Shown one piece after another: positions 1 through 26,038 of a DNA stretch of 64,000 nucleotides (positions within the stretch are counted from its first letter, which is position 1; every line of letters starts with the position of its first letter). Origin of the DNA: an uncultured Bacteroidales bacterium (GTDB taxonomy: Bacteria; Bacteroidota; Bacteroidia; Bacteroidales; UBA932); NCBI GenBank assembly GCA_905233345.1, contig CAJODQ010000006.1:1-64000 (forward strand), in the 5' to 3' direction. Below the pieces are notes generated by a model. That model had not been told where the DNA came from. It searched no databases and was given only the letters and a program-made list of their open reading frames with translations. A program made the position numbers and the translations under genes.

Positions 1-2273
1 CCGCCGAGCGTGACACCGTTCTTGAGGGTGTAGAAAAGGCCGCCGTCCACGATGAAGGTCGCGGGGAGATAGATGTTGTCGGTGATGTTTGTATACCGCT
101 TGTCGGTATAGTTGCCGTTGATGTGGAACGAGAGGTTCTTCAGGGCACCCGTCATGATGGTGTAATCGGCGAAAGCGTAGAAGGTCGTGCGCGGGAAGTT
201 GGTGGCGCGCAGGTTGATTGTACCGTCTTCGTTATAGGTGACCCATGTGGCGTCTTTCGGAATCCAGTCAAGGTAGCTGGCCACGGTACGCATGTCCGAA
301 ACGGCAAGGCCACTGGTGAATTGGAAGCCCTGGAAAGGACGGAGGGTCAGATCGAGGTCAACGCCTTTTGAAGTCTGCTTGCCCACCTGGGCGCGGACGC
401 TCTTGTTGACGACGGACCCGTTTTCTTCGACAGGTTTGTTGCCGATGGTCCTGACAACGTTGTATTTCCGGATGTAGAATACGCTGGCGTTGACGTCAAG
501 CCATTCTGCCAATTCGTAGCGTACGCCGAACTCTCCCTGATAACCCTTTTCCGGCTTGAATACTTCTCCGCCGGCTTCGTCAGGATTGAATTCGTTGCCG
601 TTACGGTCGATGTAAATGTAATTGGGGTTATAGACCGTGGTGTTGGGTTTGAAATAATTGGCCACGGAGCCATAGACCGAAAGGGGTTCCACCGGCTGCC
701 ATACCAGTCCAAGTTTATAAGTCAGCGCACCGGTACGGGTCTCTTTCCATGCGGCGCGGTCGGCTTCTTCATAATGTTGCCTGCCGTCCTTGATGGTGGC
801 TGAAGCATTCTGGTAGTGATAGAAATCGTACCGGAGTCCCACCATCGCTTTGAGTTGCTTGCTGAATGCGATGACATCATGAAGATAGACGCCATTCGTG
901 ATGTAGTTGCGGATAGCCGCAGCCGAAACCTTGCAGTCCCACCAGTCCCGCACTGTGTGAGGATCCTTGAGCGAAACGATTTCACCAAGGCCGGGACCCC
1001 AGACATCGTCTTTGTTGTAACCGTTGTACTGGGTATAGTTGAAGAACTGATAGGTCCAGCCGAAGTTGTAGTTGTGATTCAGGTTTCCGGTATTGAACTT
1101 TCCGCCCAGTTCCAGGACATTGGTGTAGTTGTGACTGTCGGGGTTGAAGCAAAGCGGAGAGCCTGACTTGACGTTTTCAAGGTCGATGTAGGTCGTGGCA
1201 CCGTTGCGGGCGTTGATGTAATACCAGTCATAGACCGGCTGGGTGCTTGTAGGATAGCTTACGTTCTCGACGCACCAGTAATCCAGATTGCTGTGACCGT
1301 AGTTGAAACGTTCGCGAAGCGTCATCCAGTCAGTGATCTTGTGGGTATAGTTGAGCGAGACATCTATGACCCGGCGCTGCATATGGTTGTTGGCATTGTC
1401 GTTGAGAGACAGGTCGTAATCGAAGAACGGGTTGCGTTCACCGCTCTTCTTGAAGATCTGGCCACCGGCCGTATAGACGTCTCCGGGCATGACCGGGGCT
1501 CCGCCGATGTCAGTGGTGTACCGGTCGTCGTTGAAAGAAACGACGCCTTCAAGGTATCCGTTGTCCGTAATTGCTGTCCCCAGGGTGAACAGGCCGCTGA
1601 AATTGTTGACGTTCACTTCGCGATAACCGTCGCCGTTGGCGTAGTGCACGTGTGCACGGTAGTTGACAGGCCCGATCAACTTGCCGCCGAAACCGACTGT
1701 CGCTTCTTTCTGGTTCCAGCTGCCGAGGCTGATGCTGGCGTTTACGGTCTGCTGCGGTGAGGCTTTCTTGCGCACGATATTGATGACACCGCCCATTACG
1801 GAGTGGCCGCTGAGCACGGACGAGGGGCCCTTGAGCACTTCGATGGATTCCACCGAAGAGAGGTCACTGAACGGAACGTTGTTGATCAGGGAACGCTCGT
1901 CACGGATGCCGTCCACGGCAATGACTGCGTCTGTAGTTCCCCGGATGCTGTAGCGTTTGAATGCGCCGAGTTGGTCGGATGTCTGTACGACGCCCGGCAG
2001 ATATTTCACGGCGTCTTCAAGTTGCAGGATATGGTTGCGTTCCAAAGTCTTTGCTTCTATGCGGCTGACCGTGATCGGAAGGTCCTTGATGGGAACGTCG
2101 AGGTTGAGCAATTTTACCTGGTTGTCCTGCAGGGGACGATAATAATAATCATAGATCGCTGCGCTGTCAAGCGAAAACACGGAGTCGACCATGCTTCTTT
2201 GGCGCTCCGGCTGTTGAGCCGATGCTGTGATGGCGCACAAGGCACAGATTGTAAACAGAATGGTTTTTTTCAT
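1..2273 (-). CDS. TonB-dependent receptor (siderophore/corrinoid-type); partial, C-terminus lies beyond the window start
   Basis: Not in the ORF track because it has no in-window stop. Reverse-complement translation from the ATG at 2273 gives MKKTILFTICALCAITASAQQ... (signal peptide), then the plug-domain segment ...LDVPIKDLPITVSRIEAKTLERNHILQLEDAVKYLPGVVQT.... The frame stays open to position 1. It lies 3 nt downstream of the PepSY gene, in the classic PepSY/TBDR operon arrangement. Confidence 0.85.
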   Translation of the reverse strand, partial: MKKTILFTICALCAITASAQQPERQRSMVDSVFSLDSAAIYDYYYRPLQDNQVKLLNLDVPIKDLPITVSRIEAKTLERNHILQLEDAVKYLPGVVQTSDQLGAFKRYSIRGTTDAVIAVDGIRDERSLINNVPFSDLSSVESIEVLKGPSSVLSGHSVMGGVINIVRKKASPQQTVNASISLGSWNQKEATVGFGGKLIGPVNYRAHVHYANGDGYREVNVNNFSGLFTLGTAITDNGYLEGVVSFNDDRYTTDIGGAPVMPGDVYTAGGQIFKKSGERNPFFDYDLSLNDNANNHMQRRVIDVSLNYTHKITDWMTLRERFNYGHSNLDYWCVENVSYPTSTQPVYDWYYINARNGATTYIDLENVKSGSPLCFNPDSHNYTNVLELGGKFNTGNLNHNYNFGWTYQFFNYTQYNGYNKDDVWGPGLGEIVSLKDPHTVRDWWDCKVSAAAIRNYITNGVYLHDVIAFSKQLKAMVGLRYDFYHYQNASATIKDGRQHYEEADRAAWKETRTGALTYKLGLVWQPVEPLSVYGSVANYFKPNTTVYNPNYIYIDRNGNEFNPDEAGGEVFKPEKGYQGEFGVRYELAEWLDVNASVFYIRKYNVVRTIGNKPVEENGSVVNKSVRAQVGKQTSKGVDLDLTLRPFQGFQFTSGLAVSDMRTVASYLDWIPKDATWVTYNEDGTINLRATNFPRTTFYAFADYTIMTGALKNLSFHINGNYTDKRYTNITDNIYLPATFIVDGGLFYTLKNGVTLG

Positions 2274-2275
2274 AC

Positions 2276-3694
2276 TTAGATGCTATTATTAGGTCTGATG
2301 TGTTTCTTTCTGAACAGTTTCCTGATACCGCGGACAATCCATTTGACGCTGAGCACGATACCGGTGACGGAAAGTGCTGTACCGCCGATCATCAGTGTGT
2401 ACATGACTATATTCCATAGCCACGGGCGGTCGGTAAGGAACTTGAAGTCCAGTGTATGGAGTTTGTGGTAGAGCCAGTTGCGGGTGCGGGTGTCATCGTC
2501 GAACCGACGGGTTTCCAGGGTGACGGGATTGTAGTACCAGCGGGTGTGCATATAGTCGTCTACGATGACGCGGTATACGGGAAGCGAGGTTTCAGTGACT
2601 TTTCGTGTATGATAGTCGCGGTCGAATTCGTCAATCAGCTCGACTGTGTAGGGAATGCTGTCGCGGTACTGCCGTTCCATATCGAGGCGTACCATGTCTT
2701 CAGTGATGACAAAGGGGCTGACCCCGTCTGCCTGGGCATCGATGAATACGCGCTCCGTCGGTGTAATAGTCAGGGTATAATATGGATGTCCTCTGAATTC
2801 GCTCCAGGCTATAGTCCGGGTATCCGGATAGGCTGCCAGTGCTGTTCTGTAGTCCAGTGTGTAAAGGCCGGGATCCAGATAGCGGGATTCGCCGCGACGT
2901 CCGCCGGGCGGCCCGTTCCGCTGCTCGGTTTTCGGCGCTTTCTTCAAGAATTCCGGCATGTCAGCCAGCGACATCATGCCGCTGAAGGCGAAAGTAATGG
3001 CAAAAATGCCGAAAGAGAAACCGAGGATGTAGTGCCAGTTATACCACTTCTTCTTATAAGGGGCCGCCTTTTTTTTGCTCTTGACGGCCACGCGGATGGC
3101 CAGGACGAAACCCAGGATTACCATGATGCAACCTATGCCGGCCGCCCATTTCACTGAGTTCAGCCAGAGTTGCTGCTCTTGCCGGAGTTTCGTGAAATAG
3201 ACCCAGTGGGGTATGGCGCCGACCCAGGCCCACACGCGTTCTTTGTGCGAAGTGAACTGCAGCACCCGGCCTGTCTTGGAGCCCAGATAAAGCTGATGCC
3301 GCTCCGGATCGTCAAAATGATACTTGTAGATTGGAAGCTCTTCCCGGTTGCGGCCGAAAGGAATCCATTGGTCCAGCTTTTTCAGCGTGTCGATACGTGC
3401 CACCGGCGCTGTGCACCAACTGCGGAGGGTGGCTTCAAGGGTGTCTTCGACGGGCGTGAACGTCCGGGCGGAAATCGTCCGGTCCCGTTGATTGGCAAGT
3501 ATTTCCGGAAGAATGTCCGTGTCGGGCAGTTCCACGGTGACGAGCGGAGGCAACAACGCCAGCTGCTTGTCAGCGGACGCACGAGGGAAACCGTGATATA
3601 TCATCACGATACCTGTGGAGAACCATAGGAAGAACAATCCACACAACAATACTCCCAGCAACTTGTGCAGGAAAGAAAGTATTTTGTACAACAT
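2276..3694 (-). CDS. PepSY-associated TM helix domain protein (PiuB-like)
   Basis: 472-aa ORF. N-terminal TM helix MLYKILSFLHKLLGVLLCGLFFLWFSTGIVMIYHGF, then internal and C-terminal TM helices typical of the PepSY_TM family. Co-operonic with the TonB-dependent receptor. Confidence 0.85.
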   Translation of the reverse strand: MLYKILSFLHKLLGVLLCGLFFLWFSTGIVMIYHGFPRASADKQLALLPPLVTVELPDTDILPEILANQRDRTISARTFTPVEDTLEATLRSWCTAPVARIDTLKKLDQWIPFGRNREELPIYKYHFDDPERHQLYLGSKTGRVLQFTSHKERVWAWVGAIPHWVYFTKLRQEQQLWLNSVKWAAGIGCIMVILGFVLAIRVAVKSKKKAAPYKKKWYNWHYILGFSFGIFAITFAFSGMMSLADMPEFLKKAPKTEQRNGPPGGRRGESRYLDPGLYTLDYRTALAAYPDTRTIAWSEFRGHPYYTLTITPTERVFIDAQADGVSPFVITEDMVRLDMERQYRDSIPYTVELIDEFDRDYHTRKVTETSLPVYRVIVDDYMHTRWYYNPVTLETRRFDDDTRTRNWLYHKLHTLDFKFLTDRPWLWNIVMYTLMIGGTALSVTGIVLSVKWIVRGIRKLFRKKHIRPNNSI

Positions 3695-3721
3695 GTTTTG
3701 GAATTAAATTCCACGCATACG

Positions 3722-3896
3722 TGAAACAGCACTGACCCGGCGCTTTTCCACCTTATTGCAGACAGGCAGGTCTTCTGACTCGTTCCGCCTCAAGCGTCTT
3801 CCCGGCAAAAGCCAGTGACACAAGAATGCTTGAGGCTTCAAAGGAACATACAGCAGCGGGCACTGCTCCGGATTCACACCGGATTCCCTATTCTTT
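3722..3896 (-). promoter_or_regulatory. Cobalamin (AdoCbl) riboswitch in the 5' leader of the PepSY/TBDR operon
   Basis: The reverse complement contains GGGAATCCGGTGTGAATCCGGAGCAGTGCCCGCTGCTGT ... GTCACTGG ... and the B12 box GAGTCAGAAGACCTGCCTG. It is near-identical to the riboswitch at 17155-17300. It ends ~30 nt before the ATG of the PepSY gene at 3694. Confidence 0.8.
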
Positions 3897-3934
3897 CTCC
3901 ACCGTGGTCACGGCTTCGAACACCTGTTTGCGGA

Positions 3935-3975
3935 GGCAAAAGTAGCATTTTTGGTGCGAAAAAACAAAGGTGAAT
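3935..3975 (-). promoter_or_regulatory. Putative Bacteroidetes sigmaA promoter (-33 TTTG / -7 TAnnTTTG) for the riboswitch-PepSY-TBDR operon
   Basis: Minus-strand reading ...caccTTTGttttttcgcaccaaaaatgcTACTTTTGcctcc... has a TTTG and a TAnnTTTG spaced ~20 nt, immediately upstream of the riboswitch. Confidence 0.4.
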
Positions 3976-4278
3976 TCAATTTAGAAGTGCAACACACTTC
4001 AAAAGTCTGTGGATTCCATTGAAAAGTATAAGGCGATCCATAGGAGGTGCGCGAACAAGTATATGGCCCCTCAGGTTTCTTTCGCAGATGACTATACCGC
4101 CTATTTTTGGCCAGGAAATAAGAAAGTCAGCGTGTTTTACTACAAAGCCAAAGAAACAACCGCCGCATAGACCAATTATTATGAATAGGCGGTGACCAAA
4201 AGGTGACCAAATCTTGGGGATACAAAAAAGAAGACTTTGTATAGTGCTTGAAAATCAGCAACTTACAAGGTCTTCTTG

Positions 4279-4362
4279 TACCCGGAGCCGGGGTCGAACC
4301 GGCACAGCCTCGCGGCCACTGGTGTTTGAGACCAGCGCGTCTACCGATTCCGCCATCCGGGC
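4279..4362 (-). tRNA. tRNA-Leu (anticodon CAA), class II with long variable arm; CCA not encoded
   Basis: Reverse complement GCCCGGATGGCGGAATCGGTAGACGCGCTGGTCTCAAACACCAGTGGCCGCGAGGCTGTGCCGGTTCGACCCCGGCTCCGGGTA. It has a 7-bp acceptor stem, D-arm GCGGAATCGGTAGACGCG (near-identical to E. coli tRNA-Leu), anticodon loop CTCAAAC giving CAA, a long variable arm, and T-loop GGTTCGACC. Confidence 0.9.
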
Positions 4363-4402
4363 CAATCGTAGAGGGTGCAAATGTATGGATTATTGCGCAA
4401 TT

Positions 4403-5185
4403 TTACAAATTTGCCTTTGCCCAGGCGTAGATCAGGAAGTTCTTGTCCGAACCCCAGGCTTCGCGGTACAGCCGGCCCACTTCCGCCAGCCAGGCCTGTG
4501 AGCGCTCGCCGTCGTCGCTGCGCCCCACTTCCGCCGTGCCGCCCGCATCGTAGTACATCTCCCGCGTGGTAGAGCAGATCCGCGCATAGCGGCCCGTATT
4601 GGGCTTCAGCTGATCGTTGGTCAGCGTCAGATAGTATTCCAGCATCTCGTCCGTAGGATGTTTCTCGCGCGTCAGCCAGGTCGAATCGGCCACGTAAACT
4701 GTGACGCCGTCCTTGAACACGTAGGGCTCGTAGAAGCCCGCCGTATACATATCCTCGTACACCACGCCGGAAACCGGAAACTGCGCGCCGCTCTGCCAGC
4801 GGATGAACGCGCACACCTTCTCGATGTCAGCCGGATCCAGCGCCCCCGTGGCGTCGTACACCGCATTGACCACCCAGCGTGCCAGCTGCTCCGGCGAAGG
4901 ATTCAGCATGTAGACAAGGCCGCGCTTCGGCGCACCCAGATAGATATCCTTCCCTGTGTAATACTCCCAGAGCTGGACGGGATAGCCTTCCCAGCCCGGC
5001 AGGTCATCGCGTTCGTCCAGCAGTTTCTCGGCCATGTAAGCGGCCTCCAGCACCGTCGAGCAGCGCGCAGTCAGGGTCGCGAGGGAATCGCGGTAATACC
5101 CTTGGACCACCGGGTCGAGCTTCGGCCCGCGGTCGCAGCTGACCAGCAAAACGAGGGTCAGCAGCAGAAAGAAGTATCTTTTCAT
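4403..5185 (-). CDS. hypothetical lipoprotein (signal peptide + lipobox LLVSC)
   Basis: 260-aa ORF MKRYFFLLLTLVLLVSCDRG.... No recognisable catalytic motifs. Follows aroC on the same strand. Confidence 0.65.
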   Translation of the reverse strand: MKRYFFLLLTLVLLVSCDRGPKLDPVVQGYYRDSLATLTARCSTVLEAAYMAEKLLDERDDLPGWEGYPVQLWEYYTGKDIYLGAPKRGLVYMLNPSPEQLARWVVNAVYDATGALDPADIEKVCAFIRWQSGAQFPVSGVVYEDMYTAGFYEPYVFKDGVTVYVADSTWLTREKHPTDEMLEYYLTLTNDQLKPNTGRYARICSTTREMYYDAGGTAEVGRSDDGERSQAWLAEVGRLYREAWGSDKNFLIYAWAKANL

Positions 5186-6135
5186 AGCATCAGATCGGCA
5201 AAGACACAGGCCGTGACGGCCTCGACAACGGGCGGCACGCGCAACGCGAAACAGACGTCGTGCCGGCCGGGGACGGAATAGTCGACCAGGGCACCCCGGG
5301 TGAAATCGAAGGTACGCTGCGGCTTGCGGATGCTCGGCGTCGGCTTGGCGGCGATGCGGAACACCACGGGATTGCCGTTGGTGATACCGCCGTTGATGCC
5401 GCCGGCCCCGTTACGGGCCGTATGTCCGGCCGCGTCGATAATCGGGTCGTTGTGCTGCGATCCTGTCATCCGGGCCGCCGCGAAACCGTCGCCGAACTCC
5501 ACCCCGCGGATGCCGGGAATGGAAAACAGCGCGTGTGCCAGCAGCGACTCCATGGAATCGAAGAAAGGCTCGCCCAGCCCCACGGGAACGCCGGTGCAGC
5601 GACATTCAATGATGCCGCCCAGCGAATCGCCTTCGCGGATCGCGGCGTCGAGCCGCTCCCCAACCGCCGCCGCATCGGCGAAATCCACACCGCCGACCTC
5701 CAGCAGCCGTGCTTCCACCTGGATGGGCGCGATCAGCTTCTTGGCCACCACGCCAGCTGCCACCAGCGGCAGGGTCATGCGGCCGGAGAACCAGCCGTTG
5801 CGCAGGGAACCATACTTGGCCAGCGACACGAAATCGGCGTGGCCGGGCCGTGGAATGTCGGTGAAATCACGGTAATCGCCGTCGCGATAGTTGCGGTTGG
5901 CGAAAGTAATGGTTAGTGTGCCGTCGCTCGCGCGCCGGTCGTCGATGTCCGGCAGGTCCGCCTCGATGCGGGGCGTGGTGCCCTTGGCGCCGCTTTTGCG
6001 GCGCAGCAGGTCCGCGCGGAAGTCATCGGCATCGAGCGGCAGCGCGGCAGGAACGCCACGGAGGGTAACACCCACATTCGGCGCATGGGACGCACCAAAA
6101 ATTTCGAGCTGGAAGTGTTGGCCGAAAGTATCCAT
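5182..6135 (-). CDS. aroC: chorismate synthase
   Basis: 317 aa. N-terminus FGASHAPNVGVTLRGVPAALPLDADDFRADLLRRKSG matches the chorismate synthase signature region. Glycine-rich C-terminal motifs are present (GAGGINGGITNG). Confidence 0.9.
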   Translation of the reverse strand: MDTFGQHFQLEIFGASHAPNVGVTLRGVPAALPLDADDFRADLLRRKSGAKGTTPRIEADLPDIDDRRASDGTLTITFANRNYRDGDYRDFTDIPRPGHADFVSLAKYGSLRNGWFSGRMTLPLVAAGVVAKKLIAPIQVEARLLEVGGVDFADAAAVGERLDAAIREGDSLGGIIECRCTGVPVGLGEPFFDSMESLLAHALFSIPGIRGVEFGDGFAAARMTGSQHNDPIIDAAGHTARNGAGGINGGITNGNPVVFRIAAKPTPSIRKPQRTFDFTRGALVDYSVPGRHDVCFALRVPPVVEAVTACVFADLML

Positions 6136-10769: not shown

Positions 10770-10976
10770 TCAGTCGGAACGATACTCCAGCAAGTCCCCC
10801 GGCTGGCAGTCCAACGCCTTGCAGATGGCTTCCAGTGTCGTGAAGCGCACCGCTTTGGCCTTGCCAGTCTTGAGGATCGAGAGGTTGGCCGCAGAGATGC
10901 CGATCCGCTGGGCAAGCTCACCGGACGACATCTTTCTGCGGGCCAGCATCACGTCGATGTTGATGATGATCGGCAT
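10770..10976 (-). CDS. XRE-family helix-turn-helix transcriptional regulator (small Cro/CI-type)
   Basis: 68 aa. LARRKMSSGELAQRIGISAANLSILKTGKAKAVRFTTLEAICKALDCQPGDLL is a canonical HTH_XRE. Confidence 0.85.
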   Translation of the reverse strand: MPIIINIDVMLARRKMSSGELAQRIGISAANLSILKTGKAKAVRFTTLEAICKALDCQPGDLLEYRSD

Positions 10977-10979
10977 ACG

Positions 10980-12404
10980 CTACGCTTCTTCCTTGATTTC
11001 TTCCACTTCCTTCGCCGCGGCGGACTTTCCCTTCAGGTAGCCGGGCAGTTCCATGCCGGCGAGTTTGAAGAGGTCTTCCAACGGGGGAACCGATTTCATC
11101 AGGCCTGAGATGAAGTTGGACGTGGCCGTCTTGCCGTCGGCACCGCCGCCACCGTTGTCCCACACCGTCACCTTGTCGATGTTGATGCCCTTCACGGCCT
11201 CGACCTGCGTCTTGACGAGTTCGGGGAGCTTGTCGGTGATGAGCATCGTGATGGCCTGCTGGGCGTCGCCTCCAGCGGCGGAAACCAGCTGTCCAAAACC
11301 CTCTGCCTGCTTGGAGAGGATCTCCAGGGTACCGCGGGCCTGGGCGTCCATCTTGGCGAAGATGGCGTCGGCCTCACCTTTCGCCTTGCGGCGGATCTGC
11401 TCGGCTTCGGCTTCCGCGTCGATGATGGCTTTTTCTTTCTCGATCTGGGCGGCGACCACGATGTTGGCCTGCTGCGTCGCTTTCTCACGCTCGGCACGGG
11501 CCAGCTCGGCGTCGCGCTCGCTCTTGTAGGCCTCTTCGAGGGCCTTGGCGGCCTGCACTTTCTCAGCGGCCACGGCGATGCGGGAAGCTTCTGCCTCTTT
11601 CTCACGACGGGCTGCATCAGACTGGGCAATGGCAATCTTCGAACTGTTTTCACCCTCAACGGCCTTCGCGTTGGCGTCGGCGGTCCGGATACGGGTGTCA
11701 CGCGTGGTCTCGGCGATACGGATGTCCTTGTCCCGGTCGGCCTCGGCCTTACCGATTTCACCGAAACGGTTCTGCTCGGCCACGCTCTTCTTTGCTTCGT
11801 TGATGGCCTTCGCAGCGGCTTCCTTACCGAGGGCTTCGATATAGCCCGATTCGTCGCGGATATCCGTCACGTTCACGTTGATGAGTTTCAGGCCGATCTT
11901 GCGAAGCTCGGCTTCCACATTGGTGGAGACGTTCGCCAGGAACTTGTCGCGGTCGGCGTTGATCTCCTCGATGTCCATCGTCGCGATCACCAGACGCAGC
12001 TGGCCGAAGAGGATATCGGTGGCGATGTTCTGGATCTGGTCGGTAGACAGGCCAAGCAGACGCTCGGCGGCATTGGTCATGTTGTCGGGCTCGGTGGAGA
12101 TACCCACGGTGAAGCGGCACGGCACGTCGACGCGGATGTTCTGCTTCGACAGGGCGTTCGTCAGGTTGCACTCGATCGAGATCGGGGTCAGGTCGAGGAA
12201 CGCATAGCTTTGGAAAACAGGCCAGATGAAAGAAGCACCGCCGTGGATGCAGCGGGCCGACGAGATACCGCCTTCCTTGTTCTTGCCGGTCTTACCATAG
12301 ATAACCAGGATCTTGTCGGAGGGGCAGCGTTTGTAGCGCCGCAGGATGGCGGTGAAGGTCACGAAGACGACCGCCACGAGGATCAGGATCAGATAGAGTT
12401 CCAT
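10980..12404 (-). CDS. flotillin / SPFH (band 7) domain protein (YqiK-like)
   Basis: 474 aa. N-terminal TM helix, SPFH domain, then a long Ala/Glu-rich coiled coil (EAEASRIAVAAEKVQAAKALEEAYKSERDAELARAEREKA...). Confidence 0.85.
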   Translation of the reverse strand: MELYLILILVAVVFVTFTAILRRYKRCPSDKILVIYGKTGKNKEGGISSARCIHGGASFIWPVFQSYAFLDLTPISIECNLTNALSKQNIRVDVPCRFTVGISTEPDNMTNAAERLLGLSTDQIQNIATDILFGQLRLVIATMDIEEINADRDKFLANVSTNVEAELRKIGLKLINVNVTDIRDESGYIEALGKEAAAKAINEAKKSVAEQNRFGEIGKAEADRDKDIRIAETTRDTRIRTADANAKAVEGENSSKIAIAQSDAARREKEAEASRIAVAAEKVQAAKALEEAYKSERDAELARAEREKATQQANIVVAAQIEKEKAIIDAEAEAEQIRRKAKGEADAIFAKMDAQARGTLEILSKQAEGFGQLVSAAGGDAQQAITMLITDKLPELVKTQVEAVKGINIDKVTVWDNGGGGADGKTATSNFISGLMKSVPPLEDLFKLAGMELPGYLKGKSAAAKEVEEIKEEA

Positions 12405-12422
12405 ATTCTTCTCAACAGGTAT

Positions 12423-13034
12423 TTAAATGATTAATGATTCAAGGGGTTCGACAAGCACCGTGTCGGGGCCGATGACTTCGACCACACGGATCGGGGTGTT
12501 CGTCTTGAGGGTGTCACCGTCGGTGACGGCCCGGTATTCGCGCACGGCTTTGTTGATGGAGATCTGGACCTTGCCTTCTCCCTGCCGTTCGCCGGGAATC
12601 GTCAGATAGACGTTGCCGTTGCAGCCCACGGCCGACTTGTAGATGTCGATGTTGCCGGACTGCTGCATGCTGCTCAGCCATTTGAAGAGGTACATCACCA
12701 CGACCACCAGGGCCACGCCGATCAGCGCCGAGACGATCAGCAGCAGCGGAATCGAGTGAATCTTTTCCTGCAGCAGGATGGCCGACCAGCCGAAGCCGAG
12801 GATGAAGTTGACGAAATTGCGGAAGGTCAGCAGATTGGTTCCGCCTTCTACGGTAGCATCGGCTTCTTCGGAATCGAAGCCGGTGTCAACGTCGGTGTCG
12901 ATGCCGCCTTCGCCGGCGTCAGCGCCGATGAAGGTCAGGATGCTTTGGATCAGGAAGATCAGGGAAGCGGTCAGCGTGACGCCCCAGAGAATCTTCATGG
13001 CCACGGAAAGGGATGCCCACCAGGTTGTAATCAT
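12423..13034 (-). CDS. NfeD-like membrane protein (YqiJ-like flotillin partner)
   Basis: TM helices plus a C-terminal OB-fold region (GEGKVQISINKAVREYRAVTDGDTLKTNTPIRVVEVIGPDTVLVEP). Start re-placed at the internal ATG (MITTWW). Lies immediately upstream of flotillin. Confidence 0.8.
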   Translation of the reverse strand: MITTWWASLSVAMKILWGVTLTASLIFLIQSILTFIGADAGEGGIDTDVDTGFDSEEADATVEGGTNLLTFRNFVNFILGFGWSAILLQEKIHSIPLLLIVSALIGVALVVVVMYLFKWLSSMQQSGNIDIYKSAVGCNGNVYLTIPGERQGEGKVQISINKAVREYRAVTDGDTLKTNTPIRVVEVIGPDTVLVEPLESLII

Positions 13035-13140
13035 GTCTGAAAGGATTAATTTTCTGCAAATATACAAAAATTTATCGAAAAACAATAAAAAATTTAAAGA
13101 TTTTCTCGTATCCACAGGTGACTTGGGGGATTTTCCTTTT

Positions 13141-17140: not shown

Positions 17141-17148
17141 GTATATTT
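17141..17148 (+). promoter_or_regulatory. putative -7 promoter element (TATATTTG) driving the B12 riboswitch/locus
   Basis: gcgTATATTTGtatcgcatcagg lies immediately upstream of the riboswitch. Confidence 0.4.
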
Positions 17149-17154
17149 GTATCG

Positions 17155-17300
17155 CATCAGGTTAAGGGAACCGGGTGAAAATCCCGGACAGTTCCCGCTG
17201 CTGTGAGTTCCAAAGCGTCACGGTATTCTCCGCCACTGGGCGTTGCCTGGGAAGGCGCCGCGTACGGAACGAGTCAGAAGACCTGCCTGCTGCCTTTGTA
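17155..17300 (+). promoter_or_regulatory. Cobalamin (AdoCbl) riboswitch
   Basis: AGGGAACCGGGTGAAAATCCCGGACAGTTCCCGCTGCTGTGAG ... CGCCACTGGGCG ... GGGAAGGCGC ... and the B12 box GAGTCAGAAGACCTGCCTGCTG. It precedes the btu locus. Confidence 0.85.
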
Positions 17301-17339
17301 AATTATGGACCTGCGGCGAATGGGTCGTGATTGACTTTT

Positions 17340-18431
17340 ATGACCAAACTCTTTATACCTATGCGCAAACTATCTCTCCGGGGAGTCCTCGGACTCGCCT
17401 TGGCCATCGTTATGGCCGGAAGCCTGGCTATCAGCTGCAGTATTGATCTTGATTCCCAATACACGCAACTCCAGGAAATTGCTGAAGAAATTCAAAGCAG
17501 CGATGACGGCCTGATCAGCGTCACTTCGCTCACCACGGGCGACTACATCCTCAAATTCAAGGACCGCGGCCGTGTATCCATTCCCGCCATGCCCGGCCAG
17601 GACAACGCCATCAAAAGCGTTATCGAAAGTGACGACGACTTTGTCTTTGTTTTCGCTGACGGCTCGACCATCGCGCTTCCGCGCTACTACGAAACTTATG
17701 TGCTGACTTTCGAAGACAAGGATTACAAAGGTCCGGCCAACACCAGAACCTACTGGAGCTCGATGATCGACGAACCGCAGTACGGCGGTCCCATCCTCTA
17801 TGGAGACGGCTGCACTTGGGCTGACCAGTATAATACCTGGCTCTCCGGCACAGTGCTCCCTTACGACGCTACGACCTGGTCCGGCGGTCTGTCCGGCGGC
17901 GGCATCGCCATCTCCAACTATGGCAACGGCATGCTGGCCGGTGCCGACTACACCCGGCAGCTCGAAGTGTACAACCCGGCTTTGGACGGTGCCGGACGCA
18001 AGGGCTGCGGCAACAACGGTTCCGACAACTTTGCCATTATCTATGACGCAGGCTACTGGGGCACCAATCCGGCCGCAATCACCATGACGGACGGTAAACC
18101 TCGTGTCGTCGAATCGGTCTACGTGAACAACACCTGCTACACGATGAATTTCCTGGTTAACGGCGACGCCTACAATCCGCCCATGGCGGCTGACGGCTAT
18201 TTCAAGGTCGTTGCCACCGGCTATGTCGATAATGAAATCACTGGCACCCTCGATTTCGTCCTTGCCAGCAACGATGAATATGTGACTTACTGGGCCAAAT
18301 GGAGACTGGCCGAACTGGGCGCCGTCGACAAGATCACCTTCATGATCTACGGCTCGGATGATCTGTACGGTGACTGGGGCTTCAACGCACCGGCTTACTT
18401 CGCCATCGACGACATCGCCGTCCGCAAATAA
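17340..18431 (+). CDS. surface lipoprotein, DUF4465-like (candidate BtuH-type corrinoid-binding protein), first gene of the B12 locus
   Basis: Signal peptide and lipobox LAISC. No enzymatic motifs. Position directly after a cobalamin riboswitch and upstream of btuB/btuG. The family assignment rests on context and on my memory of the DUF4465/BtuH description. Confidence 0.6.
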   Translation: MTKLFIPMRKLSLRGVLGLALAIVMAGSLAISCSIDLDSQYTQLQEIAEEIQSSDDGLISVTSLTTGDYILKFKDRGRVSIPAMPGQDNAIKSVIESDDDFVFVFADGSTIALPRYYETYVLTFEDKDYKGPANTRTYWSSMIDEPQYGGPILYGDGCTWADQYNTWLSGTVLPYDATTWSGGLSGGGIAISNYGNGMLAGADYTRQLEVYNPALDGAGRKGCGNNGSDNFAIIYDAGYWGTNPAAITMTDGKPRVVESVYVNNTCYTMNFLVNGDAYNPPMAADGYFKVVATGYVDNEITGTLDFVLASNDEYVTYWAKWRLAELGAVDKITFMIYGSDDLYGDWGFNAPAYFAIDDIAVRK

Positions 18432-18446
18432 GTCTGGAAAGCCTGC

Positions 18447-19985
18447 ATGCGGCGTCTTTCCATATACGTTTTACTGATCGTTTCGCTCTTTGGAGCGAGC
18501 GGGTGTCCACAGGGGGCGGATGAGGGTCTGCCCCCTGTCATCACCCTGCCCGACGGCAACAGCTATTCGGTCGAACGCGGAGAAAGCCTCACGCTTTCTC
18601 CGGTATTTGCCAATCTGACCCCCACCGCCCGGATCCAGTGGCTCCGCAACGGGCAGGTGGTCGGAAGCGGCACCAGCTTCATCTTCCAGGGGGAAGAAGT
18701 GGGAGTTTTCTACTTCACCGTGGAGGTAACCACCGAATATGGAAAGGCAGCCAAAGAAATCCGCATCAACGTCCGACAGGAAGAACAACCTCCGACGCCG
18801 CCGGTCCCTCCGGAGCCACCGGATCCCCCGGGACCGACACCTACGCCGCCAGACTCCACACTCTCACCGGTCCTGCAGGCCGCCTATCTGTTTGAACAGA
18901 AGCAGTATAACGTGTCGCAGGGACGCAGCATCCGCCTGCAGCCCCTGGATATCGACAGCACCCATCATTTCCATTTCGACTGGTTCGTCGACGGAAAGCT
19001 TATGCAGGAAGGCGACGCAGCGCTCTACCGCTTTGAAGCCACGGAGCAGGGCACCCATACGGTGATCCTGCAGGGATCATTGGACGAAGGCGGCGTGCGG
19101 CACGACACGCTTTCGGTCGTGGTCTGCCCGCCGGAAGGCACCTTCCGCCGCGCGTCCTCTGCCACCAGCAGTCCGTATGCCGACCAGGTGCTGCTGTACC
19201 TGCCGGCGCCCGGCCAGTTTATCAATGAAAACTACACGGCCACGACACAGGAGGAAGCCTGCGCCTATGCGGCGGGGCAGCTGAAAGAAAACAAATACGT
19301 CTCCCTCGGCGCTTTCGGCGGAACGCTCGTGCTGGGCTTCGACCACAGCGTCGCCAACGACGGGGCGTACAATTTCGCCGTCAAACACAACGCCTATACC
19401 AACAATTCGGAACCCGGTATCGTCTGGGTCTCTCAGGATGAAAATGGCGACGGCTTGCCCAACGACACCTGGTACGAACTCAAGGGTTCTGAATACGGTC
19501 TTGACGGCACAGTACAGGACTATGCCGTAACCTACTATCGCCCCGCGGCTCCGGGCCAGCCTGTGGCCTGGACCGACAACCGCGGCGGCAGCGGCAGCAT
19601 CGACTACCTGGCGCAATACCACAAACAGGACTACTACTACCCGAACTGGGTCGGAGCGGACCGGTATACGCTCCGCGGCACGCGCCTGGAAGCCCGCAAC
19701 TACGACCAGTCCGGCCGCGGCACTTACTGGGTCAATCCGGACTACGACTGGGGCTATGCCGACAATTTCAACGCCACCGACATGCTGCCCGACGTGGCGA
19801 CAGGCATCACGCGGGGCTGCAACCATTTTAAGATCTCCAACGCCGTGACCTATGACGGCCAGCCGGCGAACCTGCAGTACATCGACTTCGTGAAGGTACA
19901 GACCGGCCTCAACGCCAAGAGCGGCTGGCTCGGCGAAGTGTCGACCGAAGTTTTCCGCGTCATCGACTACAACCTGGTGAAATGA
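18447..19985 (+). CDS. surface lipoprotein with N-terminal Ig-like domain, Pro-rich linker (PPTPPVPPEPPDPPGPTPTPP) and a large C-terminal domain of unknown function
   Basis: 512 aa. Lipoprotein signal LFGASGC. Sits between the BtuH-like gene and btuB under the riboswitch. Confidence 0.65.
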   Translation: MRRLSIYVLLIVSLFGASGCPQGADEGLPPVITLPDGNSYSVERGESLTLSPVFANLTPTARIQWLRNGQVVGSGTSFIFQGEEVGVFYFTVEVTTEYGKAAKEIRINVRQEEQPPTPPVPPEPPDPPGPTPTPPDSTLSPVLQAAYLFEQKQYNVSQGRSIRLQPLDIDSTHHFHFDWFVDGKLMQEGDAALYRFEATEQGTHTVILQGSLDEGGVRHDTLSVVVCPPEGTFRRASSATSSPYADQVLLYLPAPGQFINENYTATTQEEACAYAAGQLKENKYVSLGAFGGTLVLGFDHSVANDGAYNFAVKHNAYTNNSEPGIVWVSQDENGDGLPNDTWYELKGSEYGLDGTVQDYAVTYYRPAAPGQPVAWTDNRGGSGSIDYLAQYHKQDYYYPNWVGADRYTLRGTRLEARNYDQSGRGTYWVNPDYDWGYADNFNATDMLPDVATGITRGCNHFKISNAVTYDGQPANLQYIDFVKVQTGLNAKSGWLGEVSTEVFRVIDYNLVK

Positions 19986-21952
19986 TCCTGACCCTGCTGC
20001 TGATGCTGATGCTGCCGGCCTCGCCGCCAGACACGCTGGCGCTCGACGCCTCCGTGGTGTCCGCGTTCCGCCAGCCCGAAAAGATCATTCCCGCACAGAC
20101 CCTGCAGGGCGAGCAGCTGGAAAAACTCAACGCGCTCTCCGTGGCCGACGCCATCCGCTACTTCTCGGGCGTCCAGATCAAGGACTACGGCGGCATCGGC
20201 GGCCTGAAAACCATCAATGTCCGCAGCATGGGCACCCAGCACGTAGGCGTATTTTATGACGGCATCCAGCTGGGCAACGCCCAGAACGGGCAGATCGACC
20301 TGGGCAAGTATTCGCTCGAAAACATGGAGTCGGTGACCCTCTACAACGGGCAGAAGAGCACCGCTGTGCAGTCGGCCAAGGACTATGCCTCGGCCAGCGC
20401 CGTCTATCTCCAGACCCGAATGCCGGTGTTCAGCGGAAAGCGCCGCACCAACCTGAAAGCCACACTGGCGGGCGGCTCGTTCAGCACCATCAATCCCTCC
20501 GTGCTCTGGGAGCAGAAACTGGGCAACAGCGTCTCGAATTCCTTCAACGCCGAGTTTCTGACCACAAGCGGCAAATACAAGTTTACCTACCGGAAGAAAG
20601 ACGGCTACGACACCACGGCCGTGCGCCAGAACGGCGACGTGCGGGCCCTCCGCATCGAAGAGGGCCTCTTCGGCCGGATTCCGGAAGGGCAGTGGCGCCT
20701 CAAATTCTATTTCTACGATTCAGAGCGCGGCTACCCCGGCGCCTTCGTGCGCGAAGAACCGGGCAAGTTCCGCCACGAAGACCGGCAGTGGGATACGGAT
20801 TTCTTCACCCAGGGTTCCTTCTTCAAGAAATGGGGCGACTACCGCCTCAACGCCAGCTTCAAGTACGCCTACGACTACCTGCACTACCTGTCTGACCCGC
20901 GGCTCGACGTCTCCACGATGTATGTGGACAACCACTACCGGCAGCAGGAAGCCTACCTGTCGGTGGCCCAGTCCTATGATATTTTCAAATGGTGGGACGT
21001 GGACCTGGCGGCAGACTGGCAGTTCAACACGCTTGACGCCGACCTGGTGAACTTCGTGTATCCTTCGCGCAACACCCTGCTGGCAGCGCTGTCCACCTCG
21101 CTGCGCTGGCCGAAGCTCAAGCTGCAGGGCAGCGTACTCTACACCTTCGTCGACGACCAGGCCCGCGAAGCGGGCGCCGCGGCGGAAAGCCGCAGCGTCT
21201 GGACCCCCACCGCCGTGTTGCAGTTCATCCCGTTCCGCGACAAGAACTTCTCCATCCGGGCCTTCTACAAGCGCATTTTCCGCATGCCGACCCTCAACGA
21301 CCTCTACTATACCTTCATCGGCAACAAATACCTGAAGCCCGAGTTCAGCACCCAGTACGACGTGGGCCTCACCTGGGACAAATACTGGACCCGCGGCATC
21401 TTCAAGAAACTGAACCTTACCGTCGACGGCTACTACAACGTGGTGGAGAACAAGATCATCGCCACGCCTGCCTCCAACCAGTTCCAGTGGACGATGGTCA
21501 ACCTCGGCCTGGTGAAGATCCGCGGCATCGACGCGGCCGTCGGCACGGCACTGGCACTGGGCCCCGTCACGGCCGACCTGCGCGCCACCTACACCTACCA
21601 GAAAGCCCAGGACTTCACCGACCCGACGAGTCCCTGGTACGGCGGCCAGATCCCCTACATCCCCTGGCACAGTGGTTCCTTCACCGCTGCGTTCAGCTAC
21701 GCGGGCTGGAACCTCAACTACAGCTTCATCTATACGGGTGAACGCTACGAATCGGTGGCCAACATCCCCGAAAACCATGCCCAACCCTGGTATACCAGCG
21801 ATCTGTCGCTCTCACACAATTTCCCGCTGGGCAAGCACGCGCTTTGCGGCACGCTCGAGGTCAACAACATTTTCAACCAACAATACGAAGTTGTGCAATG
21901 TTATCCGATGCCCGGAACGAATTTTCGATTAATTTTGTCTTTCCTTTTGTAA
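19982..21952 (+). CDS. btuB: TonB-dependent receptor, BtuB-like (vitamin B12/corrinoid outer-membrane transporter)
   Basis: 656 aa. Plug domain (...NALSVADAIRYFSGVQIKDYGGIGGLKTINVRSMGTQHVGVFYDGIQLGNAQNGQIDLGKY...) followed by a beta-barrel ending ...YPMPGTNFRLILSFLL. Small size is typical of BtuB. Immediately followed by a BtuG-like gene. Confidence 0.85.
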   Translation: MILTLLLMLMLPASPPDTLALDASVVSAFRQPEKIIPAQTLQGEQLEKLNALSVADAIRYFSGVQIKDYGGIGGLKTINVRSMGTQHVGVFYDGIQLGNAQNGQIDLGKYSLENMESVTLYNGQKSTAVQSAKDYASASAVYLQTRMPVFSGKRRTNLKATLAGGSFSTINPSVLWEQKLGNSVSNSFNAEFLTTSGKYKFTYRKKDGYDTTAVRQNGDVRALRIEEGLFGRIPEGQWRLKFYFYDSERGYPGAFVREEPGKFRHEDRQWDTDFFTQGSFFKKWGDYRLNASFKYAYDYLHYLSDPRLDVSTMYVDNHYRQQEAYLSVAQSYDIFKWWDVDLAADWQFNTLDADLVNFVYPSRNTLLAALSTSLRWPKLKLQGSVLYTFVDDQAREAGAAAESRSVWTPTAVLQFIPFRDKNFSIRAFYKRIFRMPTLNDLYYTFIGNKYLKPEFSTQYDVGLTWDKYWTRGIFKKLNLTVDGYYNVVENKIIATPASNQFQWTMVNLGLVKIRGIDAAVGTALALGPVTADLRATYTYQKAQDFTDPTSPWYGGQIPYIPWHSGSFTAAFSYAGWNLNYSFIYTGERYESVANIPENHAQPWYTSDLSLSHNFPLGKHALCGTLEVNNIFNQQYEVVQCYPMPGTNFRLILSFLL

Positions 21953-21957
21953 CGAAG

Positions 21958-25233: not shown

Positions 25234-25234
25234 T

Positions 25235-26038
25235 ATGAAACGCGCCATCGCCATCAGCACCCACCAGCTCAGCATCGGCTACACCGGCCGGGGCGGACGG
25301 CGCGTGATCCATCCGGACCTCGACCTGCAGTTGCTTACGGGCGAAGTCACGGCCCTACTGGGCAGCAACGGCGCCGGCAAGAGCACCCTGCTCAAGACCC
25401 TCTGCGGCTTGCTGCCGTCCCTGCACGGCGACATTTTCATTGAAGGAAAACCCTTGGCCGGCTTCCGCTCCGGCGAACTCGCGACGCGGGTGGGCGTGGT
25501 GCTGACCGAGCGCACCCAGACCGGCGGCATCAGTGTCTACGACCTGGTCTCGCTGGGGCGCTATCCGCACACCGGCTTTTTCGGCACCCTGCGCGAGGAA
25601 GACCACGCCATCATCCAACAGGCCCTCATCACCGTCGGCATCGCCGACAAGGCGCAGCGCTTCATCTCCGAACTGAGCGACGGCGAGCGCCAGAAAGCCT
25701 TCATCGCCAAGGTTCTGGCGCAGGAATGCCCCATCATCCTGCTTGACGAACCCACCGCCTTCCTCGATGTCACCAGCCGCATGGAGACCATGATCACCCT
25801 GCGGCGGCTCGCCCACCGGGAAGGCAAAGCCATCCTGCTTTCCACCCACGACCTCGACACCGCGCTGCAACTGGCCGACAAACTCTGGCTCCAGCCCGCC
25901 AACCCGGCGGAAAACATGATCTGCGGCACGCCCGACCAACTGGTGGCCAATGGCGCCCTGACGCGTTTCTTCGGCAGCAAAACCCTCCGTTTCGATCCCG
26001 AAACCCGGAGGCTCGTTCCCGTCACCCGAAAAAAATAA
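25235..26038 (+). CDS. btuD: ABC transporter ATP-binding protein (BtuD/FecE-like)
   Basis: Walker A LLGSNGAGKST, signature LSDGERQ, Walker B ILLLDEPTAFLD. Confidence 0.9.
   Translation: MKRAIAISTHQLSIGYTGRGGRRVIHPDLDLQLLTGEVTALLGSNGAGKSTLLKTLCGLLPSLHGDIFIEGKPLAGFRSGELATRVGVVLTERTQTGGISVYDLVSLGRYPHTGFFGTLREEDHAIIQQALITVGIADKAQRFISELSDGERQKAFIAKVLAQECPIILLDEPTAFLDVTSRMETMITLRRLAHREGKAILLSTHDLDTALQLADKLWLQPANPAENMICGTPDQLVANGALTRFFGSKTLRFDPETRRLVPVTRKK

Follow-up and report, generated by a model that had tools for sequence, protein, structure and literature searches.

Described Receptor/PepSY_TM Systems and the Unit in the Window

FoxA/FoxB of Pseudomonas aeruginosa consists of a ferrioxamine receptor and a di-haem siderophore reductase encoded by adjacent genes, which are controlled by iron (Fur) or by sigma/anti-sigma signalling. 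To our knowledge, FoxB is the only PepSY_TM relative with a solved structure. The pair provides the precedent for reductive iron release (bioRxiv 10.1101/2021.01.28.428567). A non-iron pair is found in Bordetella pertussis: CrtA/CrpH, a copper importer and a putative copper reductase (PMC13038864, PMC12914433), whose metal was assigned from regulation and genomic context, and whose CrpH, tied to haem-copper oxidases, forms a distinct PepSY_TM subfamily with conserved His. The family is thus not restricted to iron, and its characterised members are reductases (PMC13038864). In Bacteroidetes, the hmu-like/BtuS (CobN-like) loci (Rodionov et al. 2003, as cited in PMC6460266; PMC10100974) and the IhtA-IhtB(FetB) loci (PMC13065792) carry a B12 riboswitch before TonB-dependent receptors accompanied by exported CbiK-like/CobN-like chelatases; the accessible text of the papers on these loci neither mentions nor assigns a PepSY_TM gene. 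A literature search found no paper tying PepSY_TM proteins to B12 control. The canonical BtuB-BtuG-BtuH-BtuFCD locus is governed by the same riboswitch family, and the genome studied here has one as well (17142-26038). Rodionov et al. in 2003 and 2006 and Schauer et al. in 2008 reportedly described cobalt transporters under B12 riboswitches and predicted TonB-dependent receptors for cobalt; we know of no PepSY_TM reductase or exported chelatase among those predictions.

The unit considered here lies at the edge of a 64,000-nt stretch of DNA from an uncultured Bacteroidales bacterium, referred to below as the window. It is predicted to form a single transcript that starts at a Bacteroidetes promoter, carries a cobalamin riboswitch followed by the genes for a PepSY_TM protein and a TonB-dependent receptor, TBDR_A, and in near-identical contigs ends at a terminator-like hairpin. 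The receptor and PepSY_TM genes are adjacent, as in FoxA/FoxB, but they stand under a cobalamin riboswitch, and in other genomes such pairs have cobalt chelatases and cbi genes beside them in place of iron genes. From CrtA/CrpH the unit differs in its probable metal, in its regulator and in phylum, as well as in the linkage of window-type pairs to B12 riboswitches and corrin genes. Among the related loci of other genomes are exactly operons of the hmu-like/BtuS and IhtA-IhtB(FetB) kind with a PepSY_TM gene inside, whereas the window unit, with neither chelatases nor a BtuB/haem-type receptor, comprises only the predicted reductase and a siderophore-type receptor. The canonical Btu locus likewise uses an outer-membrane TonB-dependent receptor, but that of the unit belongs to another class and is accompanied by a predicted reductase instead of a surface lipoprotein or an ABC importer. 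Like the B12-riboswitch cobalt systems, the unit would place cobalt supply under repression by B12 and would use a TonB-dependent step at the outer membrane.

The Cobalamin Riboswitch and Its Leader

The aptamer occupies positions 3748..3942 of the minus strand, where the Rfam covariance model RF00174 scores 99.3 bits (E 1.3e-23; gathering score 31.5) and is covered over positions 1-189 of 189. A cobalamin riboswitch in this minus-strand leader had been recognised in the original prediction, whose span of 3722-3896 missed the 5' 46 nt and included 26 nt of the leader. The core is complete (GGGAA..GGUG, GCCACUG, AGUCAGAAGACCUGCC) and the B12 box GAGTCAGAAGACCTGCCTG is present at 3763..3781(-), the columns of both being invariant in alignment A2 of 21 riboswitches. 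The element lies 53 nt 5' of the PepSY_TM ATG on the same strand, with a Bacteroidetes-type -7 promoter box, TACTTTTG, directly at its 5' edge (3937..3944, minus strand). The underlying motif, TAnnTTTG, is the Bacteroidetes -7 element; it occurs within -25..+15 of the 5' end in 73 of 82 riboswitch matches, compared with 25 of 1640 random 41-mers. A sigma-70 scan around the leader found no promoter, as expected for this phylum.

The 53-nt leader between aptamer and start codon (3695..3747, minus strand) has no intrinsic terminator, and a terminator scan of 3600-4400 returned no terminator-like site; control is therefore more likely exerted at the start of translation or through some non-canonical mechanism. 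A short hairpin following the aptamer (AGCGC-CGGGUCA-GUGCU; 3728..3744, minus strand) appears in both the MFE and the centroid fold. Its five pairs are kept in seven orthologous leaders, with both sides changed at all five. A custom model, R1, finds orthologous leaders in the related loci. The hairpin may be regarded, by known cobalamin riboswitch structures, as a candidate kissing-loop regulatory helix, because CGGG in its loop could pair with CCCG in the loop of the aptamer. The orthologue of the riboswitch in locus L003 is 97% identical. From the riboswitch family, corrinoid-dependent repression of the unit would be expected.

The second cobalamin riboswitch of the window (17142..17304, plus strand; RF00174, 97.9 bits) heads a canonical Bacteroidales B12 locus with genes for DUF4465/BtuH-like, PKD, BtuB, DUF5074/BtuG-like, BtuF, BtuC and BtuD proteins (17331-26038). 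Both loci are thus matched by the covariance model, the check that had been proposed for them, and the B12 box is common to the two, as had been noted. The claim that they are near-identical does not hold: their identity is 60% over 161 aligned columns (49% with gaps counted), and either of them is 48-67% identical to unrelated cobalamin riboswitches of other genomes. Their architecture also differs, a 23-position hairpin of the model being replaced by 2 nt in the second. As 60% identity is the family background, the argument for duplication of the regulatory element fails.

The PepSY_TM Protein and the Receptor

The PepSY_TM gene (2276..3694, minus strand) encodes a protein of 472 aa, matched by PF03929 with 58.8 bits (cutoff 28.8) over residues 9-448. 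In the structural model four TM helices are capped by two periplasmic alpha/beta (PepSY-like) domains in a fold similar to that of FoxB, which was the top match in both fold searches and the only significant one (PDB 7ABW), with a low TM-score and about 15% identity. A profile of the PepSY_TM alignment A1 found nothing at E<=1 among all PDB sequences, FoxB included, and the window protein is, judged by sequence, a distinct and distant subfamily of PF03929/COG3182 relative to FoxB. Five histidines (H10, H34, H163, H221, H413) and four tryptophans (W177, W183, W217, W220) are invariant in 18 homologues and sit at the ends of TM helices in the model; the histidines are candidate ligands of two b-type haems, as in FoxB. 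Since the family, the FoxB fold match and the invariant His/Trp pattern all point there, the protein is most likely a periplasm-facing di-haem reductase and not a permease. The original prediction had seen in it an atypical inner-membrane partner, which is apt as regards the non-canonical operon and unlikely as regards a role in transport. It is the only inner-membrane protein of the unit, and could on that account be a permease completing the transport of the receptor's cargo; yet four TM helices under two periplasmic alpha/beta domains, with invariant histidines that would be paired at either face of the membrane, are the layout of the FoxB reductase, not a transporter fold, and the characterised relatives are reductases (PMC13038864), which leaves the permease very improbable.

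The gene of TBDR_A (1..2273, minus strand) starts 2 nt after the PepSY_TM stop codon. Its 3' end falls beyond the window edge, so that 757 of 789 aa are visible, the full length being known from loci L081 and L003. Plug and beta-barrel Pfam domains are present, and the receptor is of the siderophore/metallophore type: its best NCBIfam match is the siderophore subfamily TIGR01783 (residues 65-755), at 144.5 bits below the subfamily cutoff of 223.5, with a query short by 32 aa. The nearest solved chains are annotated TonB-dependent siderophore/iron-transport receptors (5NEC, 5FP1, 5FOK), CntO and FoxA. It is not a BtuB, matching TIGR01779 with 52.4 bits against 599.7 and NF007926 with 40.3 against 836, in the plug region only. 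The unit contains no BtuF, BtuC or BtuD, that is, no binding protein, FecCD permease or ABC ATPase; all three are placed after the second riboswitch. Both genes of the operon had thus been named correctly, as had its departure from a canonical btuBFCD set.

Conservation across Bacteroidales Loci

In a comparison of 80 related Bacteroidales loci from at least 10 genera, a co-directional cobalamin riboswitch was found upstream of the PepSY_TM gene in 65, with all intervening genes co-directional; in 13 of the 15 remaining loci the locus edge falls inside the operon. Parabacteroides distasonis and Bacteroides cellulosilyticus are among the tractable carriers. PepSY_TM is present in 78 loci, TBDR_A in 64, CbiK in 64 and a BtuB/hemin-type receptor, TBDR_B, in 34, and the operons further include corrin-synthesis genes (CbiHC in 27 loci, CbiET in 24, CbiGF in 21 and CbiJD in 15) and, in six loci plus L003, a CobN-like (BtuS/HmuS) gene. 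One form of the operon reads [riboswitch] TBDR_B-CbiK-TBDR_A-PepSY-cbiHC-cbiET-cbiGF-cbiJD, and a second [riboswitch] TBDR_B-f8-CbiK-PepSY-CobN-like. Nearly all full-length CbiK copies have a signal-peptide-like N-terminus, a few being edge-truncated or having an over-extended predicted start, and in the CbiK of L003, aligned to that of Salmonella, the GHG/E/DH metal-site positions are kept. The pairing of a siderophore-type TBDR_A with a BtuB/hemin-type TBDR_B agrees with separate routes for metal and macrocycle. With 65 riboswitches in 80 loci, and with CbiK, CobN-like BtuS and cbi genes in the operons, the earlier idea of an additional route for a corrinoid, a precursor or cobalt gains strong support.

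The receptor class and its pairing with a PepSY_TM protein are typical of iron systems (bioRxiv 10.1101/2021.01.28.428567) and would suit an ordinary ferric-siderophore pair, of the FoxA/FoxB or XusA/XusC type, beside an incidental or vestigial riboswitch. The aptamer, however, is intact (99 bits) and stands at a promoter of its own, 53 nt ahead of the start codon; the association with a riboswitch extends over 65 of 80 loci in at least 10 genera and reaches CbiK and cbi genes; and no iron-related gene was seen in the PepSY_TM operons of the related loci. Such an iron pair is accordingly hardly to be expected.

Proposed Function

The unit, taken with its linkage to B12 riboswitches, exported cobalt chelatases and corrin genes, points to a step by which cobalt or a tetrapyrrole is acquired to supply B12. 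The explanation preferred here, though tentatively, is the B12-repressed import of a cobalt-bearing complex followed by reductive release in the periplasm, where we infer the repression, the reductase activity and the nature of the metal. When corrinoid is plentiful, its binding to the aptamer would lower expression, probably at translation initiation, since there is no terminator; when it is scarce, both the receptor and the PepSY_TM protein would be made. The siderophore/metallophore-class receptor would bring a metal complex into the periplasm, and the di-haem PepSY_TM protein of the inner membrane would carry electrons outward and reduce it. The cargo would contain cobalt, most likely as a Co(III) chelate, and once reduced to labile Co(II) the metal would be set free in the periplasm. 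In related genomes an exported CbiK, often with a CobN-like BtuS, could insert this cobalt into a tetrapyrrole imported through the second, BtuB/haem-type receptor, and the product would feed the cbi corrin pathway. FetB, an exported CbiK homologue, has Co and Mn chelatase activity and shows no dechelatase activity on haemin (PMC13065792).

The same control by a riboswitch would suit TBDR_A as an alternative corrinoid receptor for a Co(III) corrinoid, whether complete or incomplete and possibly carrier-bound, with the PepSY_TM protein reducing it to Co(II) and thereby stripping the upper ligand or freeing the corrinoid for the BtuFCD of the second locus. The common corrinoid forms are Co(III), and gut Bacteroides carry several corrinoid receptors of differing specificities; a stand-alone two-gene cassette could plug into an existing BtuFCD, and in L083 the cassette does sit directly upstream of a btu locus. 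The receptor is nonetheless siderophore-like and not BtuB (TIGR01779, 52 bits against 599.7), no BtuG- or BtuH-like surface protein lies beside it, and the genes conserved beside it (CbiK, cbiH/C/E/T/G/F/J/D) serve early steps of the pathway, for which a complete corrinoid would have no need. This alternative is possible but rather unlikely.

Operons joining the riboswitch, TBDR_B, CbiK, PepSY and cbi genes or a CobN-like gene would also be compatible with tetrapyrrole salvage, in which a (metallo)tetrapyrrole from outside the cell, for instance sirohaem, sirohydrochlorin or a derivative of uroporphyrin, is imported to the periplasm, its metal is reduced by PepSY_TM and removed by the CobN-like BtuS, and cobalt is inserted by the exported CbiK, supplying the cbi pathway in Bacteroidales unable to make precorrin-2. 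HmuS, the relative of CobN type, is a dechelatase that depends on haem being reduced and has no known source of electrons (PMC12583661), cobalamin riboswitches have been noted on hmu-like operons (PMC10100974), and tetrapyrrole-precursor salvagers are a recognised category, P. gingivalis lacking the steps to precorrin-2 (PMC6461909). Against salvage stand the lack of an adjoining tetrapyrrole-type receptor or chelatases in the window lineage, the class of TBDR_A, which is neither of haem nor of BtuB type, and the fact that the operons show no evident importer of a cobalt-tetrapyrrole across the inner membrane; we consider it distinctly unlikely. Likewise improbable is a periplasmic re-metalation line in which the PepSY_TM reductase would work together with both receptor classes, with the exported CbiK and with CobN-like BtuS. 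Haem-auxotrophic Bacteroidales would then turn a scavenged tetrapyrrole, for example neighbours' sirohaem or sirohydrochlorin, and scavenged cobalt into cobalt-sirohydrochlorin, feeding an otherwise orphan cbi pathway; this would explain how organisms like Porphyromonas gingivalis can retain a corrin pathway without making precorrin-2. Of such a system the window cassette would represent the transferable half, the one concerned with cobalt and reduction.

Most Bacteroidales require B12 but are considered incapable of its synthesis, and its supply shapes how they compete in gut and rumen. The loci described here point to a widespread, predicted B12-repressed module distinct from the known BtuB/G/H/FCD uptake system, with a predicted periplasm-facing reductase and a siderophore-type receptor at its core, and in many genera with an exported cobalt chelatase and corrin-ring enzymes in the same operon. 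Supply of cobalt or cobalt-tetrapyrrole by this module would add a periplasmic stage of redox chemistry and chelation to B12 biosynthesis or salvage and would extend the PepSY_TM reductases to a third metal; the old question of cbi use by precorrin-2-deficient Bacteroidetes would become directly testable in tractable species.

The Unit in Near-Identical Rumen Contigs

In near-identical contigs the unit stops after the receptor, at the terminator-like hairpin, and in this lineage neither a tetrapyrrole-type receptor nor chelatases adjoin it. One of the loci, L083, has the cassette directly upstream of its btu locus. From promoter to terminator the unit is ~99.4% identical in rumen contigs whose flanks are unrelated or 80-86% identical, and the presence of a near-identical cassette in divergent genomic backgrounds suggests that it is being exchanged among rumen strains.

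The transcription unit headed by a B12 riboswitch

The Rfam scan of the whole window gave three matches, two cobalamin riboswitches and one tRNA. The first riboswitch (3748–3942, minus strand) matches the full model with 99.3 bits (E 1.3e-23) and lies in the leader of a PepSY_TM gene, where the original prediction had expected it, although the aptamer coordinates given there are off by about 46 nt. The gene content of the operon had been read correctly: the riboswitch is followed by the gene of a 472-aa PepSY_TM protein (2276–3694, minus strand; PF03929, 58.8 bits, cutoff 28.8) and, starting 2 nt past its stop codon, by that of a TonB-dependent receptor with Plug and barrel domains, TBDR_A, which is encoded on the same strand and cut by the window edge at position 1, leaving 757 aa visible.

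The 5′ edge of the aptamer (3937–3944, minus strand) carries the sequence TACTTTTG, a copy of the Bacteroidetes −7 promoter motif TAnnTTTG; this motif occupies a comparable place in 73 of the 82 riboswitch matches of the study, as against 25 of 1640 random 41-mers. The end of the aptamer is separated from the PepSY_TM ATG by 53 nt, a stretch in which no intrinsic terminator serving as an expression platform was found. Shuffled sequences fold as stably as the leader (z −0.09). Leader folding and orthologue comparison pointed to a 5-bp hairpin with the loop CGGGUCA (3728–3744, minus strand), the only conserved element of the leader, which is kept in 7 orthologous leaders with both-side changes at all five pairs, each in one sequence or more. 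As its loop complements the CCCG in the loop of the aptamer, the hairpin could be a kissing-loop regulatory helix.

Two dissimilar cobalamin riboswitches

The second cobalamin riboswitch (17142–17304, plus strand; Rfam, 97.9 bits) heads an operon encoding DUF4465 (BtuH-like), PKD, a 656-aa receptor and DUF5074 (BtuG-like), as well as a periplasmic binding protein, a FecCD permease and an ABC ATPase. Since this is a typical Bacteroidales B12 uptake operon, the contrast drawn earlier between a canonical and a non-canonical riboswitch locus is correct. The same cannot be said of the near-identity of the two riboswitches, which had been taken to suggest a duplication of the regulatory element. In a 21-sequence alignment they agree at 60% of 161 aligned columns (49% if gaps count), the same as to riboswitches of unrelated genomes, to which either of them shows 48–67% identity; the true orthologue of the first riboswitch, in the goat-omasum locus L003, is 97% identical to it. 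A hairpin of the first riboswitch is missing from the second, in which 2 nt stand in place of 23 model positions. The B12 box quoted in the original prediction is indeed found in both, and the string they have in common is the universal core of the family, so that it lends a duplication no support; on the pairwise identities this origin was rejected.

About 4.5 kb downstream of the canonical btu locus, at 30533–32689 (plus strand), NrdD is encoded, the B12-independent anaerobic class III ribonucleotide reductase.

Related loci in Bacteroidales

A scan of one genome per species yielded 458 loci encoding PepSY_TM relatives, of which the best 80 were fetched. All 80 are of Bacteroidales origin, with the genera Parabacteroides, Bacteroides, Phocaeicola, Tannerella, Odoribacter, Butyricimonas, Dysgonomonas and Prevotella and the families Rikenellaceae and Muribaculaceae among them; the closest, L003, comes from a MAG of goat omasum, at 97% aa identity. 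Rfam recognized a riboswitch in each of the 11 loci sampled, and a covariance model built from 21 riboswitches gave 83 matches across the best 80. In 65 of these 80 loci the PepSY_TM gene is preceded by a same-strand riboswitch, and any genes in the interval run in the same direction. The 15 others yielded nothing even at E ≤ 10, and a relaxed covariance search of 12 riboswitch-less loci returned only noise; in 13 of the 15 the co-directional operon runs off the fetched sequence, and L043 and L077 are the only two that look like true negatives. Cobalamin riboswitches also occur as divergent, back-to-back pairs, with one TAnnTTTG box per riboswitch and receptor operons driven both ways, in L002 (5456–5954), L003 (385–836), L036–L040, L060, L063, L064 and L079.

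By gene clustering of the best 80 of the 458 loci, PepSY_TM is present in 78 loci, the siderophore-type receptor TBDR_A and the CbiK family in 64 each, the second receptor TBDR_B in 34, four more families in 27, 24, 21 and 15, and a 1,300-aa family in 6. Pfam and NCBIfam identified CbiK (sirohydrochlorin cobaltochelatase family), CbiH-CbiC, CbiE-CbiT, CbiG-CbiF, CbiJ-CbiD and a CobN-like chelatase; the best matches of TBDR_B are BtuB and hemin receptor models. Neither database has a family for f8 (426/430 aa), for the 244-aa protein of L003 or for the 185-aa protein encoded after CobN. Three operon types, each headed by the riboswitch, can be distinguished: (a) an optional TBDR_B, CbiK, TBDR_A, PepSY_TM, CbiHC, CbiET, CbiGF and CbiJD; (b) TBDR_B, a 430-aa protein, CbiK, PepSY_TM, a CobN-like protein, a 185-aa protein and an ExbB-like protein; and (c), the type of the window, an optional CbiK, PepSY_TM and TBDR_A. 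Phylum-wide, then, the PepSY_TM/receptor pair goes together with B12 riboswitches and with genes for exported CbiK, for CobN-like chelatases and for enzymes of the corrin ring.

Nearly all full-length copies of CbiK have a signal-peptide-like N-terminus, a few calls being truncated by the locus end or having an over-extended predicted start. Aligned to Salmonella CbiK, the L003 copy keeps the GHG, E and DH positions of the metal site; among the relatives with solved structures are FetB of Porphyromonas gingivalis and the periplasmic CbiK of Desulfovibrio. In most of L005–L080 the exported CbiK carries, after the signal peptide, a His-rich motif A-H-G/E-G-x-N-Y/F-x-x-S-D (e.g., L060 4983–5930, L020 2634–3560), missing in the cytoplasmic Salmonella enzyme, which could be a metal- or partner-binding extension. 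The BtuB/hemin-type receptor is always followed by the conserved protein of about 430 aa (L060, L063, L068 at 3789–5069, L073, L074, L078, L015, L044 and L069), which, by analogy with BtuG or HmuY, may be a surface lipoprotein partner. It is also worth noting that a second, paralogous PepSY_TM, 30–34% identical to the first and sharing its operon, at times in tandem, is encoded in L014, L015, L020, L024, L027, L028, L031, L033, L044 and L071, which suggests two reductases with differing substrates or partners.

Identity of the receptor and of PepSY_TM

The best NCBIfam match of the receptor is the siderophore subfamily TIGR01783 (144.5 bits, under the cutoff of 223.5), and its nearest solved chains are 5NEC, 5FP1 and 5FOK, deposited as TonB-dependent siderophore or iron-transport receptors, followed by CntO and FoxA. 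That the riboswitch-headed unit, with such a receptor, is an ordinary iron system is considered very improbable. BtuB models reach just 40–52 bits on the receptor against cutoffs of 600–836; its being a corrinoid receptor, whose cargo would be reduced and then passed to BtuFCD, is regarded as unlikely.

The PepSY_TM protein has homologues in the hundreds, and among 18 of them (41–86% identity) H10, H34, H163, H221, H413, W177, W183, W217 and W220 are invariant. NCBIfam assigned it to no family. A search of the PDB with its sequence profile gave no chain at E ≤ 1, which marks it as a distant subfamily; its relation to FoxB was therefore taken to fold comparison, in which FoxB came out on top. 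FoxB is a 4-TM protein with two PepSY domains that reduces ferrioxamine in the periplasm, its two b haems being bound by conserved His (bioRxiv 10.1101/2021.01.28.428567), while CrpH, from another PepSY_TM subfamily, is paired with a copper receptor (PMC13038864). By analogy with these two proteins, PepSY_TM is most likely a reductase; its being the permease of the system is given very little credence. The original observation stands, and its interpretation is supported in part: its duplication argument falls, and what it termed an inner-membrane partner is more plausibly a reductase.

Proposed function

In the mechanism proposed, corrinoid would repress the PepSY_TM/receptor unit, the receptor would bring a metal complex in, and PepSY_TM would send electrons to the periplasm, reducing the imported complex. 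A cobalt-bearing cargo is tentatively favoured, at somewhat less than an even chance, because the receptor is of metallophore type and the co-operonic TBDR_B of tetrapyrrole type. It is also favoured because class II chelatases work on divalent metal and complexes of Co(III) are inert, because the periplasm is not known to contain a soluble reductant and the sole chelatase of the cbi-containing operons is exported, and because FetB acts as a cobalt and manganese chelatase in vitro and showed no dechelatase activity on haemin (PMC13065792). Against it, however, the window lineage has the cassette on its own, cobalt in anoxic habitats should be Co(II) already, PepSY_TM in several genera adjoins CbiK and TBDR_B rather than TBDR_A, and neither protein has any cobalt-specific feature.

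Tetrapyrrole salvage followed by re-metalation is judged rather improbable. Tetrapyrrole-precursor salvagers have been described as a concept, and P. gingivalis lacks precorrin-2 synthesis (PMC6461909); HmuS is a haem dechelatase that requires reduced haem, the electron donor not being identified (PMC12583661), and hmu-like operons carrying a cobalamin riboswitch are known (PMC10100974). These operons, like the BtuS family of Rodionov et al. 2003 (as cited in PMC6460266), are earlier examples of receptor/chelatase loci under B12 riboswitches in Bacteroidetes. As the literature searched gave no link of PepSY_TM proteins to cobalamin riboswitches or B12, the finding is read as a receptor/PepSY_TM reductive-uptake pair brought under B12 control, the kind of system itself not being new. 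The riboswitch alone is routine; the interest lies in a conserved, uncharacterised, apparently mobile B12-controlled reductase/receptor module, whose operon ties to exported CbiK and the cbi pathway likewise merit experiment.

Probable mobility of the cassette

The exact PepSY_TM protein of the window is encoded on many rumen metagenome contigs. Six of these, L081–L086, are 99.3–99.6% identical to window 1–3988 or 1–4279, with flanks that are unrelated or 80–86% identical to other parts of the window. Copies of the cassette (promoter, riboswitch, PepSY_TM, TBDR_A and 3′ hairpin) lie in the window at 1–3988 (up to 4279), in L081 (9414–13843), L083 (182–4318), L084, L085 and L086, and in L003 (5727–9811). 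The block common to two contexts, 4,137 nt at 99.4% identity, starts about 20 nt upstream of the promoter and ends at a 12-bp hairpin 20–70 nt past the receptor stop codon, beyond which the six near-identical contigs carry unrelated genes; on one contig the cassette lies directly upstream of a btu locus 80% identical to that of the window. The cassette has no recombinase of its own. This 4.1-kb unit looks like the product of recent horizontal exchange or a gene-specific sweep, and was most likely exchanged recently among rumen strains.

In L003 the cassette, 96% identical, continues into genes for the 244-aa protein, CbiK and a CobN-like protein. Because six 99.4%-identical contigs end at the hairpin, CbiK and CobN are not assumed downstream in the window genome, and the window operon, as read from these contigs, most likely consists of PepSY_TM and the receptor only. 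The other side of the L003 cassette is occupied by a riboswitch–TBDR_B–CbiK-like–DASS/CitMHS permease operon. This second riboswitch operon, immediately upstream (606–5662), encodes a BtuB/hemin-type receptor, a 379-aa CbiK-like protein and a 501-aa DASS/CitMHS-family anion permease, a candidate inner-membrane carrier of a polycarboxylate tetrapyrrole.

The 3′ end of tRNA-Leu(CAA) (about 4279–4362, minus strand; Rfam, ARAGORN) is the exact point at which the homology of the window to the other contigs breaks off. Upstream, where the window has this tRNA, the L081-type contigs carry small genes instead, HTH_3 and unknown ones, which suggests an insertion or rearrangement at tRNA-Leu. The 310-nt spacer (3968–4279) contains two copies of the direct repeat TTTGGTCACC and, adjoining tRNA-Leu, a small inverted repeat ACAAG..CTTGT. 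Elsewhere, window 10780–13095, encoding a 203-aa protein and a Band_7/SPFH protein, is inverted relative to L081 15349–17657 and L084 6379–8687, the flanking DUF1508 and GHMP-kinase genes being unflipped.
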